Source of the DNA: Octopus vulgaris
Taxonomy: Eukaryota
Assembly: GCA_951406725.2 (NCBI GenBank)
Contig: OX597821.1
Location: 44,702,001 to 44,766,000 of the forward strand
Direction: 5' to 3'
DNA: 64,000 nucleotides
How positions within the stretch are numbered: the stretch's first letter is position 1; every line of letters begins with the position of its first letter. The notes beneath the pieces were generated by a model. The model did not search any database, was not told where the DNA came from, and saw nothing but the letters and a program-made list of their open reading frames with translations. The position numbers and the translations under genes were made by a program. Of the stretch, positions 64 to 49,205 are shown piece after piece.

Positions 64-561
64 AGAGAACAAACATCAAATTCAAGTCAACAACTTTATA
101 TATTACACCACGCCTCCAAACATTTGATCTTATATAAATATTACCATGGCCCTTAAAAATATAAAGTATACATATATAAAAAAAACACAGAAGGTAAAAA
201 ATATATATGCAAATAAAAATACAGATATACAGACCAGCCTATCAAGAAGGTATATACAATTGACTAACAATTCTAAAGTGTGTCATGTGACTAAAAATCT
301 AAATAAAATAAAATATCAATCAACGAAAAAAAATTTTTTATTACTCCCCTCAAACAAAAAAGTATGTCAGAAAAGTTCATATCATAAAAACCATGGTAGG
401 TTGAAGTCCAGGAGCAAAAAGATTTCCACAAAATCAAGTCAAACACATCTATGGCCATTTCAGTGCAACTCGGTAATATTTATATATTTATATATGATCA
501 AATGTTTGGAGGTGTGGTGTTATATATAAAGTTGTTGACTCGAATTTGATGTTTGTTCTCT
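64..561. repeat. Element with ~82-bp inverted arms (64-145 / 472-561), Penelope-pLTR-like
   Basis: agagaacaaacatcaaattcaagtcaacaac...aatattacc is mirrored by ggtaatatt...gttgttgactcgaatttgatgtttgttctct. The interior (446-461) reads GAAA-TGGCCA-TA-GATG on the minus strand, the 3' half of a minimal HHR. Confidence 0.7.
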
Positions 562-1189
562 CTCTCTTTATATATATATATATATATATATATATATATA
601 TATATATATATGTATGTATATCTACTAGTACATATAAATATATATATATATATATATATATATATATATATTAGTGTACAGTTAAACACAAGAGAAAACT
701 ACCTTTAACAGGTAATTTTTTTACACACTGGAAGAAGCAGTCAAAACGTCCAAAACCACATTTAAGAGCAATTTTCGAAATGAATGAAAAATAAAATCTT
801 TTACCTTATTTTTTTTACGTTGTATATATATATATATATATTTATTCATCCCCACCCCACAAAAGATGAGCAATTACTTCCCCTGTCCCCGGTAATAACG
901 ATCATCAGTTACCTCCCCTTATATTCTTCACTCATTCATTCACAAACTTCTCCACACATGACATGCACTAAAATCTTTAAGAAAATACGAAATTACAATA
1001 ATTTCAATGTAATTCATTAGTGAAAGCAAAACCAGTCGACAAACGCAATGTAAAATATATTAAAACTATATAAAGTGTGTGCATTTTCTTCTTTTATTTT
1101 ATATATATATTTTTGCAATACAACTCACCGTGTGGAGATAATAAAAATTCCTCCTTTTTTGTAACTATATATATATATATATATATATG

Positions 1190-1369
1190 ATAGATCGTTA
1201 GCCACTACACACATTTTTTTCTCTCCTTGTTTTTCCTGTGATCCTTTCTGTAGAAGAGCGTAGGCTCGAAACGTAAAAGACTTTTTCTATTCCTGAGTGT
1301 TATACTACTACATCTGTTTGTTTTGTACACAACCTGTCTTCATGTTTTGTTTTTTTCGTAAACTCTCCC
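1190..1369 (+). mobile_element. Short dispersed element carrying a minimal HHR-like motif (family M, copy 1)
   Basis: Homologous to 6380-6555, 39720-39866 and 49020-49205 (minus); ends in (TA)n. Confidence 0.75.
1244..1279 (+). ncRNA. Minimal type I hammerhead-like motif, A6U core variant
   Basis: CTTT-CTGTAGA-A-GAGC gtag GCTC-GAAA-CG-TA-AAAG: 4-bp stem I, 4-bp stem II, palindromic ACGT in place of stem III. Confidence 0.6.
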
Positions 1370-1610
1370 ATATATATATATATATATATATATATATATA
1401 TATATATATATATATATATATATATATATATATATATATATATATATATATATATATATATATATATATATATATATATATATATATATATATATATATA
1501 TATATATATATATATATATATATATATATATATATATATATATATATATATATATATATATATATATATATATATATATATATATATATATATATATGTA
1601 TATATATATA
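1370..1610. repeat. (TA)n microsatellite, ~240 bp
   Basis: Nearly uninterrupted TA run; another run lies at 569-672. Confidence 0.99.
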
Positions 1611-2235
1611 AATCTGACATGGGTGATTCTTTCTTGTCTTGGGATTTACAGTCAAACGTCTGGGTGGAATTGTGCAAACAATTTTACAGGAATGATCCAT
1701 TGGTGATGCTGGGCTTTGTATTTTTTCATAGCTCCCATGGTTACTGAGATAATCTACTATAATAATAATAATACTCTTGTGTTTATGAATGAGAAAGGAA
1801 AGGGTGGTAGATGAATAAGGAAGGAATGAGTGATGTCATCTTGGTAGTGGGATGATGAAAATTGTACACTGAAAAAATAATCAAACAGCATTTGAACTCT
1901 GTGTGAATATATGTGTGTGTATGTAAAAGGGGGTATGTGAATGTGTGTGTGTGTGTTTGTGTGTGCGTGTGTGCATGCAATGGAAGTGGTTCATCTTTGT
2001 TTGCTTATTATTTGGGTTTATTTTTTGATTTGGTTGAATCTTGGCTGTTTTTTTTTTTTTGTTGGTCAGATATTTTTAGCATTTTGACAGGAAAAAGTCA
2101 TTCTAAAATTGATTTTTAACGTATGCCCAAACAAGCTGAATGCTTATACAGAGAAGGTTTTACAGCCACATCATCCAAACCAACCAGATGAAACTGGGCT
2201 TAGCTGCTAGTATATATATATAATATACACACATA

Positions 2236-45494: not shown

Positions 45495-45810
45495 CCATTT
45501 AGTGGTTTCTCTCAATAGCCAATCAAGTAGCTGAATGATTGTTGCTTGCAATTTCATTGTCTCTCCAGTGAAGATATAAAGTTACAATGAGCAAACACAA
45601 ATCTAAATATGTAAAATAGGGAGGAACTGTTCATAACTTTTCTTTACTGTATAGTTCCTGCGACAAATTCTTAATTGGGAAGCAGATCTCAAGAATGCTT
45701 ATTAGAAATATACTGCAATGATAAGAGCATATTTATGATTGCTATCAGCACACTTCTACAATAATCATTCCCTCCACCCAACAGTGGGATTTCATCAGGA
45801 GTGTCACAAT
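45495..45810 (+). repeat. ~310-bp dispersed repeat (second copy at 54345-54645)
   Basis: Shared gattgttgcttgca, cacaaatctaaatatgta, ctcaagaatgcttattag, ggatttcatcaggagtgtcaca. Confidence 0.85.
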
Positions 45811-47524
45811 TAAAATATTGACAAAACAATAACAAATTTTTTTATGAACTACCATAAAAGCCTTTCTATTTCATGAAGTAATCCTCATTAGTCCAGGTTC
45901 CATGCTGGCACAGACTGGATAGTTTTGATGGGACCCAATAGGTTCTCATTCTGCTTTGGTATAGTCTCTACAACTGAATGCCCTTCCTTATGCCAATCCC
46001 AATTTCAGTATGCACTGAGCATTGAAACAGGGGGGGGGGTGACACCCAGCTATTTTCATGTGTTGAAAAATAAACATCAATCAATACATAAATGAAAAGA
46101 AAATTATTTCAAAGAATCAAATGCTGCAAATTATTGTTTTCTATTTTTAAAAACAAAAAAGCTTTTAAGTTGGCTGAAACTAATAATAAATATTCTTGGT
46201 TTGAAAAATAACCCTAGTTAATTAATTAATTGAAGTAATCTTCAATCCAAAATTTAGAAGAAATAATTGGGTTTGTATTAGGTATGAAAAATCAGTCTGC
46301 AAGAGAAAAATAACCACAGAGAATTCAAAAACATGGAAAAAAATAAAATTCAGTATAATGTAGTTTAGGTTTGAAATATATCTGGCTTTCAATAGGAATT
46401 TAGTGAAAGTTCTAGTGGAAATGGTTATGGAACAATATAGCTTCCATGGTGCTTTTGGCTTTGTTAACCATTGTCAAGTTTTTGAGAGACTATAGCTTGT
46501 AGTGTGCCTAAAAGATTCATTTCACAGGAAAACTATATTATATATTGTTCATTTGTTTTATGTTCATTTTTCCATGCTAGCATGAGTTAGATGTATACAT
46601 ATTGCTGTACAGCTGCTTGTTCTCACTGTCACTAACCCTTACTTGTTTTTCAAGTAAAGGAGATTTCATTCCATTCATCTTAGAAAGTGCAAAGCTCAGA
46701 TAATTTGCTGATAGGGAAATGAAAAAAGAAAATATCATCCACAGTCCAGTAAATGTCTACACAAAGCACAAAATGTAAACACACACACAAATTCATATAC
46801 ATATATACATATCAAATGGGCTTGAACACTTTCAGTCTACCAAATTTAACTAAGATTGCAGCTGGCCCAATGTTACAGAAGACACTTGGACAAGGTGCCA
46901 TGCAGTGGGACTAAACCCAAAATCAAATGAAGTAGTTGTGAAACAAACATCTTATATATACAGTTCAAACATAAATTTCAAAATATTGAATTCTTTTTTA
47001 TAGATAGAATTCAATTTTCTTCAAAGAAAGTCTGAAATCCTGAAAAGTGACTACAATAATAGAAATTGTGGTGATAAATTTTGATAGTTCCTGTGATGTA
47101 CAATGAGAACATGCAATGTACTATAAAGAATCAGTTGCATAAATGTTGCATTACATATACAGTTTGTGTAAAGAGAGAATAATAGCAACAGAGTGGTAAA
47201 GTTACCTCAATAATTAAATGAAGGACTAATGATAGACGTTTAATAATTATATGTCCATTTTGTTTCTATTTTTGCCTGTAACTTGATAGAAGAATATAGA
47301 ACAAAGTTTGAAATGTGAAAATATAGAACATAATAGCATGGAGACTACAATTAGATGACAAATCTCCCAAAGATAATAAAACTTCAAAACAGACAAAAAA
47401 AGGCAAGAGAAAGAAGAATATGAAGAGTAATTTAGAATATACAAAAAGGCAAGTTTGAAACATTAGGTGAAAAGTATTTTCATGAAACAATATGAGGTGA
47501 ATAATTGAAATAAAAAAGCTTCCA

Positions 47525-47885
47525 CATAAAGAGAAATAGACAATCTACCCCAACTACCATGCTAAACATGAAGAGAAACAGAAACCTGTATGAGTCATCC
47601 CAGTAAACAAGAAACATGCAATCTACCTCAGTGAACCTGTTAAACATGAAAAGAAATAGCAATATTGTCAATCCACCCCAGTCACCCTGTTAAACATAAA
47701 AGAAACAAAATGTGCAATCTACCCCAGCCAACCTGTCAAACATGTAAAGAAATAGCAATAAAAATAATCCATCCCAGCCACCCTGTTAAACATAAAGAGA
47801 AAAAAGAAACAAGTGCAGTCTACTCCAGCCGACTTGTTAAACACAAAGAGAAACAGAAATACAAACAATCCACCCTGTCAAGCAA
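47525..47885. repeat. Degenerate ~50-60-bp tandem repeat
   Basis: Recurrent aatc.accccagc...tgttaaacat.aagagaaa. Confidence 0.75.
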
Positions 47886-49019
47886 TAAGTATAGACAGCC
47901 ATACTCAATATTTAAAACAATTCAATCCAAGTAACGTGAAACATTTATAATGGTTAGTTAAATACATTGTTTTGTTGTTATATTGAAATTAAACATTAAC
48001 CTCATGTTCATCTGAAATGAAAATACAAAAAAAGTGAGGAAAAGAATTCACAAAGTCTGAGCCTAAATACTGAAGTTTCAACATCGCTAGTATATGTAAG
48101 AGAATGGGAATATGATGTGCATTTCTTACATAAATTTAGAAATTATACAAAAATGTTATTGATACATTTATACTTCAGAGTAAATAGATTGGAAAGTTCT
48201 TATCCACAAGAAATATAGATTTTGAAAACAAAGCAGTCAATTGGCAGAATTATAGGAGCAGAATAAATGTCTTTTGGTATTTGATCCAACACTTTAATGT
48301 TCTGAGTTTTAATCCCACCAAGTCCAACATTACCATTCATCCTTCAGATGAAATAAAGTACCAGAGGAGTACTGAAGCTGATTAAATTGTTTGCTGATCT
48401 GTGCTAACAAATGCAATAGGCCAGTATGATACAGTATATCTCAAGATCCCTGCCCAAATGTGAAGCTATGATGACAAGTGGAGTGATACTACCTTCACAA
48501 TATCTATCTGTAACATCCTATATTTCTACCAACATAATACACACACATCCTATCATTTATTCAGATATATACACACACATACTATTTCTCTTTAAAAAGT
48601 AAATCCCATTAACTTATATGATTCTGTTATATCATCCCTAAAATGTGATTTTCCAGAAATAAATTCACATGCAAACAAGAAACTGCAGGAGTCACATCAA
48701 TACTGAGAAAAATTTGTAAGCATGTTAATTCTGTAAAACTACTGTTTGGTCTGAAGACTCAAATTGTTTTTATTCATGTAGGGTTTTAGAAACTCTCAGC
48801 TGGTGATTAAAAATATAAATGTAGGAATAGTAGGTGATGGTGATGTTGAAACTTTTGCCCATTGATGAGAGGGTTCCCCACTGCAATTTTAACAGAATTA
48901 CCAAAAACAACTGGATATTATCTAGCAAATACTTAGGCTACTGTCATCATGCAACTTGTTCCTAAAGAGTATAGTACATTTTAGGGAGGTTGTGTGTGTG
49001 TATGTGTATATATATAGTT

Positions 49020-49205
49020 CAAAATTATAGAAAACAAAAAAAACAAAGACAAGTGAGGGAACAACAAGCAGGTATATTAGTTTGATGCTCAGGAAGAATG
49101 GAAAGTCTTTGATGCTTCAAGCCTACATTATTCAAAAGAAAGGGTTGAGAGGGAAAAAATAGAGAACAAAAGAAAAATAAATAAATAAAAAGAGAAAAAA
49201 ATGTG
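49020..49205 (-). mobile_element. Family M element, copy 4
   Basis: Minus strand CTTT-CTTTTGA-ATAAT gtag GCTT-GAAG-CA-TC-AAAG, then gagcatcaaactaatatacctg. Confidence 0.6.

Follow-up and report, generated by a model that had tools for sequence, protein, structure and literature searches.

The window analysed here is a stretch of 64,000 nucleotides of the Octopus vulgaris genome (contig OX597821.1, positions 44,702,001 to 44,766,000; G000:C8:44702001-44766000), which was searched against the whole genome of 2.8 Gb in 227 contigs. It is AT-rich, with abundant microsatellites, and contains scattered hammerhead ribozyme (HHR) motifs that an earlier note, made from the sequence alone, had described as one hidden system. 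The motif positions in that note are accurate, mostly to the first base of stem I, and comparison with genomic copies places 12 of the 13 full motifs in seven repeat families, A to G, whose relatives have type I HHR cores. Instead of a single system, the window probably holds about ten separate, mostly decayed insertions of these families, likely all copied in by the reverse transcriptase (RT)-endonuclease proteins of Penelope-like elements (PLEs). The 13 motifs reduce to about ten events because the insertions of families C, E and B are head-to-head pairs.

Three motif architectures can be told apart, as had been proposed: a short palindromic helix III in families A, G and E, a long helix II with a helix III of four pairs in family C, and a helix III of the form AUCAC..GUGAU in families B, D and F. 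Family A is represented by an element of about 205 nt between (TA)n tracts (1167-1374, plus strand), which is 92% identical to its relative L013 (41 matches listed of 2441 candidates). Its HHR at 1244-1279 has U at core position 6 (U6), an added A after A9, a 4-bp stem II and a palindromic helix III, and all stems are present. A different U6 subfamily lies at 6399-6557 (plus strand), where the HHR at 6431 is decayed and has lost G12. Two remnants of family A, at 39736-39855 on the plus strand (75-76% by BLAST) and 49001-49171 on the minus strand (HHR site 49105), have lost the core. Family G, a relative of A with a canonical core, occupies 12146-12293 (plus strand; 85% to L198), and its minimal HHR at 12220-12256 has an intact core. 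Family E forms an inverted pair, with the left arm at 37545-37732 on the minus strand (HHR 37621-37666, G5 changed) and the right arm at 37733-37870 on the plus strand, where the HHR is decayed by a deletion past helix III.

Family C is likewise an inverted pair. Its left arm (25099-25248, minus strand) carries an HHR of the type found at the 3' end of Hydra-clade PLEs (25181-25244, two core changes), and its right arm (25263-25359, plus strand) carries a decayed one in which C3, G8 and G12 are lost. Family D is present as 1.3 head-to-tail units with a period of 341 nt (11565-12012, plus strand), beginning within a first HHR, of which a half motif remains at 11568, and continuing to a full HHR with three core changes (11883-11928). 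Family F comprises 1.2 head-to-tail units with a period of 328 nt (25687-26087, plus strand) and an HHR with two core changes (25854-25913). The best motif of the window is the intact type I HHR at 40619-40682, which belongs to family B (unit length 481 nt). This copy (40478-40712, minus strand; 92% to L056) is 5'-truncated and has its 3' end in (TA)n; an inverted second piece of the same insertion (40712-40807, plus strand; 86% to L056) also ends in (TA)n. A further fragment of the 481-nt B superfamily (71%), lacking the HHR part and with a short inverted repeat, lies at 38631-38824.

The canonical core and the stems are intact only at 12220 and 40619, that is, in 2 of the 13 full motifs. One to three core positions are changed or lost at 6431, 11883, 25182, 25266, 25854, 37621 and 37787, and the core is gone at 39775 and 49105; the motifs at 25182, 37621, 40619 and 49105 are on the minus strand. 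Two of the claimed sites were not confirmed. At 39537, where the remnant is E-like (39432-39596, minus strand), and at 446, on the minus strand of an element of about 500 bp with a 78-bp inverted arm (64-561), only a 3' half is visible (GAAR, palindrome, UH). Each has one relative among the loci compared (L221, 79%, and L154, respectively), neither of which shows a clear 5' core, and these two sites alone may have arisen by chance.

Rfam in gathering mode gave no match in the window, and at E<=10 there was no hammerhead family among the 150 matches listed of 262; its low-scoring miRNA matches coincide with AT microsatellites and inverted repeats. A type I descriptor at a score of at least 20 gave 8 matches, compared with a mean of 0.88 and a maximum of 3 in 40 local dinucleotide shuffles, and at a score of at least 18 it gave 10, compared with 2.25 and a maximum of 6. 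The motif counts thus exceed those of shuffled sequence, although the enrichment is somewhat tuned, the descriptor having been relaxed after a stricter version recovered just 3 of the claimed sites. Five of the top eight matches are claimed sites (40619 with a score of 40, 12220 with 21, and 25854, 25181 and 37621), and the motif at 1244 scores 18. At a score of at least 12, about 23 chance matches arise per shuffle. The additional matches at 63708 (plus strand, inside an open frame) and at 54761, 62249 and 53277 (minus strand) have no relatives among the loci compared and were taken as chance.

Profiles built from other genomic copies of the families recovered 11 of the 13 full motifs and the half motif at 11568; the motif at 39775 was assigned to family A by BLAST. 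The same profiles gave 12 matches in the 64-kb window and 8 in 200 kb of 20 arbitrary stretches, so the window looks about 4-5 times richer in motifs than average, a comparison biased towards it because the profiles stem from relatives of its own copies. For each family, between 102 and 2441 first-look candidates came out of the DNA searches; 40 of them were scored, and sequences were fetched for 20-30. As best matches, the fetched relatives are skewed towards the window copies. Leaving out window copies and duplicate loci, canonical cores occur in 25 of 28 relatives for family B, 16 of 19 for E and 0 of 29 for A, or 26 of 29 if the U6 variant of that family is counted.

The claim that stems differ between families and still pair was borne out. 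For stem I in 15 hand-picked subfamily representatives, 4.4 of 6 positions form Watson-Crick pairs with their own partner, compared with 1.8 when partners are swapped (0/20000). In 20 C-type copies 88.9% of the cells are paired, and 33 double changes are found compared with 13.2 in shuffles (0/500), with slid controls at 35-49%. Compensatory changes are present in three helices, and the slid and swapped controls drop to about half. Kinship among the copies inflates these counts; the changes nevertheless span different subfamilies.

The HHRs of families A, G and E have the features of minimal PLE HHRs: an extra base between positions 9 and 10.1, a G-C pair at 10.1-11.1, a palindromic helix III and a mostly solo occurrence. 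The A-type stem II followed by GAAACGU has 38,560 exact matches in the genome and none in the reversed control. Of these, the core CUGUAGA accounts for 6,035, and cores with a base other than A at both positions 6 and 7 for 13,435, with U6 in 95 of the first 100. U6 copies therefore number about 18,800, about half of the A-type motifs; canonical CUGA(A/U)GA, counted with A or U at position 7, has 1,259 matches. Among the first 100 A-type matches, all from the start of one contig, 59 have U6, 22 have C at position 4 (C4), 12 are canonical and 7 are of other types. C4 is the second common core variant, found in most F copies and in many A-type and B-type copies genome-wide. The 59 U6 copies never vary at C3, G5, G8 and A9, and 58 of them retain U4; any of the four bases can stand at position 7. 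U6 probably arose once as a derived change: in a midpoint-rooted tree built from 25 of the 36 UA copies, 3 UG copies and 30 A6 copies, in which the UU, UC and UG subfamilies are barely sampled, the U6 copies group in a single clade whose neighbours are three canonical copies with a similar loop on stem II. Reading the U6 core in a shifted register was rejected, since it would leave a 2-bp stem II and put the variability at position 4. Minimum free energy folds of the motif at 1244 and two-copy cofolds did not contain the active fold and were uninformative.

Family C can be followed to protein-coding sequence. One C locus showed an upstream endonuclease fragment, and a search with this fragment gave 7903 candidates, of which 150 were scored and 30 fetched. 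By BLAST, the C motif of the window lies on the same strand 220-300 nt downstream of the endonuclease in 13 of these 30 loci. The C profile matched 21 of them, 11 being profile seeds, and thus 10 of the 19 non-seed loci; it gave one weak match in 200 kb of arbitrary DNA. Across C loci the HHR follows the endonuclease by 130-300 nt. The order in locus L190 is RWK, DKT, CxCX5C, endonuclease, HHR and (TA)n, and these features are given as hallmarks of the Hydra clade in section 11 of PMC8557442. RWK and DKT are also present in L187 and CxCX5C in L183, most loci being too truncated to assess. Loose patterns over 39 loci found CxxC-E in 28 and N-CxH in 32, and by eye there is no cysteine pair between the half-motifs, in line with the C-terminal GIY-YIG endonuclease without CCHH that marks the Hydra clade. 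Every fetched copy of the family is broken and no intact RT was recovered; the clade was assigned by motifs. Among 41 candidates from a search for longer proteins homologous to the endonuclease there was one match, an uncharacterised protein of Octopus bimaculoides (68%). Judged by these motifs, family C forms the 3' terminus of Hydra-clade PLEs that encode proteins. The earlier note was right that several HHR families are tied to PLEs and that some are retrozyme-like, but C is a truncated autonomous element and not one of the non-autonomous families supposed. An initial, guessed assignment to the Nematis clade was dropped once the definition of Hydra was compared. The Hydra-type endonucleases of L182, L183, L187 and L190 contain a low-complexity Asn/Ser/Thr insertion of up to a few hundred residues between the GIY-YIG halves.

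In families B, D and F the 3' ends run into the units' own 5' starts, with periods of 481 nt for B, 338-344 nt for D and 302-341 nt for F. The units contain no open reading frame (ORF) and stand head to tail at many unlinked loci, where the break points vary along the unit. The shared helix III pattern has 1,431 exact matches in the genome and none in the reversed control, and the first 100 of these include one 31-copy array with a unit of about 481 bp, one 4-mer and several 3-mers and dimers. The array (G000:C1:64640504-64654968) contains 31 HHRs at a spacing of about 481 bp, is preceded by an inverted copy, and belongs to a sister subfamily of B. Seven units sampled from both of its ends are 99-100% identical to each other, and along their full length they share about 69% identity with family B. 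Both outer ends of the insertion (L231 and L232, G000:C1:64639653-64655240) lie in (TA)n and stop at different points of the unit, resembling the two 3' ends of family B. The array unit of 481 nt has a GC content of 33%, a longest ATG ORF of 42 amino acids, no protein and no long terminal repeat (LTR). Folded as circles, the array unit and the family B unit reach z values of -7.1 and -7.3 relative to shuffles, compared with -0.1 to -2.4 for four controls.

Runs of two or more units with complete HHRs, the mark of a retrozyme, occur in the 31-mer, the 4-mer, the 3-mers and the dimers of the sister subfamily. By its sequence, the array subfamily falls under what Li et al. 2026 take as a working definition of active non-LTR retrozymes, and the 481-base repeat is young and likely spreads as circular RNA. 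A retrozyme unit of 300-340 nt had been expected; the best candidate is 481 nt long, and the long array it forms is located elsewhere in the genome. Among 30 loci of the B subfamily present in the window there was no tandem with two HHRs and there were at most 1.6 units, and the two-HHR tandems of families D and F (L099, L106, L133 and L134) are decayed. In assembled contigs of four runs from four studies, whose RNA nature is guessed, 27-29 of the unit's 29 bins are covered and the end-to-start joint is included, a joint that tandem DNA yields identically. In the contigs of one run a cluster of A-to-G differences lies within an array unit (L231:1571-1612), at a low depth at which editing and alleles are inseparable. 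Further subfamilies sharing this helix III, with other periods, are present in L235 (about 419 bp) and L240.

All families are present in hundreds to tens of thousands of copies, which have a common 3' end and variable 5' truncation, frequently an inverted second piece, and in part a tandem arrangement; most copies of each family are solo or inverted. Where the 3' end was found, (TA)n follows it directly in 24 of 24 copies of B, 22 of 27 of A, 9 of 12 of E and 5 of 6 of F, with a background of 6%. The C, E and B insertions in the window are head-to-head with both 3' ends outward. The pairs 25182/25266 and 37621/37787, which had been taken for tandem monomers, are therefore each the inverted halves of a single insertion. 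The window also contains the PLE ORF fragment noticed earlier (6842-7018, plus strand), which corresponds to the linker between RT and endonuclease (tblastn to the L190 peptide, E 2e-4, 29% identity). It is a broken orphan of about 180 bp, with internal stops and no HHR behind it, and cannot be the mobiliser.

A route to these insertions may be drawn from in vitro work on PAc, a Poseidon element of Anolis, for which the published account describes extension of both strands, internal RT starts, dispensable HHR cleavage and a protein-assisted HHR (PMC11167929). A PLE protein would nick AT-rich DNA and prime reverse transcription from a set position within the RNA, producing the fixed 3' end. Where copying stopped early, a truncated solo HHR copy would be left, and inverted pairs whose 3' ends both face outward would result from priming on the two strands. 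B-type RNA would likely be cut to unit length by the HHR, circularised and copied round repeatedly, resulting in the 1.2 to 31 units seen per insertion. Folding of the minimal HHRs (A, G and E) would depend on either a second copy or the PLE protein. Nicking, internal priming, both-strand extension and rolling-circle copying are inferred from PMC11167929 and the retrozyme papers.

Several observations weigh against copying by PLE proteins or against spread as circular RNA. With Hydra-type peptides as queries and 1.5-kb flanks, there was no endonuclease match at the A (0/30), B (0/30), D (0/20) and F (0/20) loci and one at 20 E loci, 1.3 kb away; 20 loci of G and canonical A showed no ORF link either. 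Pfam gave no RT or GIY-YIG match for six broken PLE fragments or the scrap at 6842-7018, and in family C (TA)n stands at the shorter 3' end in only 6 of 18 copies. Canonical cores are scarce among the relatives of three families, at 5/28 for C, 8/19 for D and 2/18 for F, or 6/18 including C4. The units of D and F show no circular folding signal (z 0.2 to -1.3), there is no RNA record among the runs listed as holding the array, and near-identical tandem units can also come from amplification at the DNA level. One alternative is that all families are truncated 3' ends (solo pseudo-LTRs) of autonomous PLEs, and that unequal crossing-over turned such ends into local satellites, the tandems, without a circular RNA or any part for cleavage. 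This holds for family C, and it agrees with the reach of family E 650 nt upstream into pyrimidine-rich sequence and with the mostly solo or inverted copies of every family; the satellite route is discussed by Li et al. 2026, in whose account cleavage occurred in 1 of 9 dimers tested. It is difficult to reconcile with the ORF-less self-junctions of B, D and F at many unlinked loci with differing break points, with a 31-mer and its inverted copy of nearly identical units inside one (TA)n-bounded insertion, and with a circular fold of the B unit far better than that of shuffles. For the families as a whole we consider it improbable, and we prefer insertion by PLE proteins. That the motifs are chance look-alikes in AT-rich repeat DNA would agree with the lack of Rfam matches, the failure of most window copies to fit the consensus and the shuffle matches at low score. 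The 38,560 and 1,431 exact motifs with none in the reversed controls, the compensatory changes and the fixed place behind PLE endonucleases refute it for 12 of the 13 full motifs, and its probability is negligible.

Whether the U6 motif of family A cleaves has to be weighed separately. Changes of A6 lower HHR activity (A6C to under 0.1 per min; PMC3088659), and core mutants are low in activity (PMC9901934). On the simplest reading, and given the U at position 6 of its core, family A probably spreads while cleaving weakly or not at all, and its fold would be retained for another reason. It is possible, but in our view doubtful, that U6 is instead an active variant that is rescued by dimers or the PLE protein and whose cleavage is under selection. 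The 59 U6 copies keep C3, G5, G8 and A9 while varying at position 7, the free position of the HHR, they belong to one clade adjoining canonical-core copies, and a PLE HHR that cleaved only with its protein is described in PMC11167929. Apart from the low activity of A6 mutants, this account is countered by the pattern of change resting on about three subfamily-founding changes, and by the consideration that binding of the fold by a PLE protein would conserve identical bases without cleavage.

The remaining features of the window are of other kinds. A broken piggyBac-like transposase lies at 3279-4356 on the plus strand (Pfam DDE_Tnp_1_7 at 3564-4022, E 1.7e-14). The segments at 12962-13270, 22450-22884, 33181-33486 and 18461-19515 resemble, by motifs, Tc1/mariner transposases and the RT of an RTE-type long interspersed nuclear element. 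Long palindromes with arms of 70-95% at 8188-8445, 12292-12367, 14589-14711 and 17362-17755 may be inverted insertions of other families. An open frame of 195 amino acids at 63239-63826 on the minus strand is likely a last coding exon; it contains a hydrophobic segment and two PY-like motifs and has no Pfam match. For the most part, the window holds decayed remains of element types that are already known.

The results suggest that part of the unclassified short repeats of octopus are PLE-dependent ribozyme elements. A more tentative reading, to which we give low confidence, is that two fates of PLE HHRs stand side by side in this genome: a young and probably still active 481-nt retrozyme with circular RNA, landing by rolling-circle copying as a single 15-kb insertion whose inverted ends are of the PLE type, and an element of about 205 nt that rose to about 19,000 exact copies once U had taken the place of the conserved A6, the remainder of the core being kept. 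U6 would then be an unrecognised working core, or PLE proteins would select the fold as a binding signal and not for cleavage. If this is true, the retrozyme would be the first such case in a cephalopod within the literature covered. The role of HHRs in PLEs is called unclear in PMC8557442, and cleavage was dispensable in vitro according to PMC11167929. This genome offers natural paired controls, namely sister families whose cores are canonical, C4 or U6, together with a multimeric retrozyme that is young; under the tentative reading, the sister families would make the role of PLE hammerheads directly testable.

The earlier note had allowed that the families might be undescribed; all three kinds, the PLE with an HHR at its end, the minimal HHR and the retrozyme, are already published, and an octopus Hydra PLE with an HHR is already listed. 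In titles and the beginnings of abstracts we found no cephalopod retrozyme and no U6 family, a scope outside which lie Lunse et al. 2017 and the supplements of Cervera, which may list U6 or octopus motifs. The words "Octopus" and "cephalopod" are absent from the main text of Cervera and De la Pena 2020 (PMC7229834), and "ribozyme" and "hammerhead" from that of an annotation of octopus repeats of 2026 (PMC13282606).

Families A, G and E resemble the minimal HHRs of PLEs in the description by Cervera and De la Pena 2014 (PMC4209133), with the extra base between 9 and 10.1, the G10.1-C11.1 pair, a short stem I and a palindromic helix III; thousands of mostly solo copies and opposite-strand pairs 100-700 bp apart are also common to both. 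Family E differs in having an extra A on each side of stem II. The dominant family here has U6, whereas the variant named in the covered text of that paper, in which we met no U6, is U3-A8. The at least 38,560 exact motifs compare with 2,000-9,000 in other genomes, counted by a different method (PMC4209133). Craig et al. 2021 (PMC8557442) list Hydra-1_Obim of Octopus bimaculoides, for which they give an HHR and (TA)n targets. The features that family C shares with the Hydra clade as described there are RWK, DKT, the CxCX5C linker, the catalytic E and N flanked by CxxC and CxH, (TA)n as target, and an HHR close to the 3' end. The L187 fragments are similar by eye to the published Hydra-1_Obim protein, and in the 4-pair helix III with its 1-nt loop just the loop base differs. 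The stem I and II sequences are different and helix II is longer, which makes C a separate family within the clade.

Families B, D and F resemble the non-LTR retrozymes of animals, which are head-to-tail units of low GC content that lack an ORF and contain a single type I HHR apiece, from monomers to multimers; these are known from coral, mussel and amphibians and have been proposed to be non-autonomous PLE derivatives (PMC7229834; Li, Clavereau and Pollet 2026, bioRxiv 10.64898/2026.07.22.740005). The length of 481 nt exceeds the range of 150-450 given in the former and is within that of 51-972 given in the latter. PAc (Frangieh et al. 2024, PMC11167929) belongs to a different PLE clade and, in the published description, shares AT-rich targets and both-strand extension with the families here; HHR mutants of it still insert, and its two internal RT start sites may be compared with the two 3' ends of B-type elements. 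The units described here are known from genomic sequence, and the inverted, (TA)n-bounded layout of the 31-copy array is a direct mark of PLE-type insertion.

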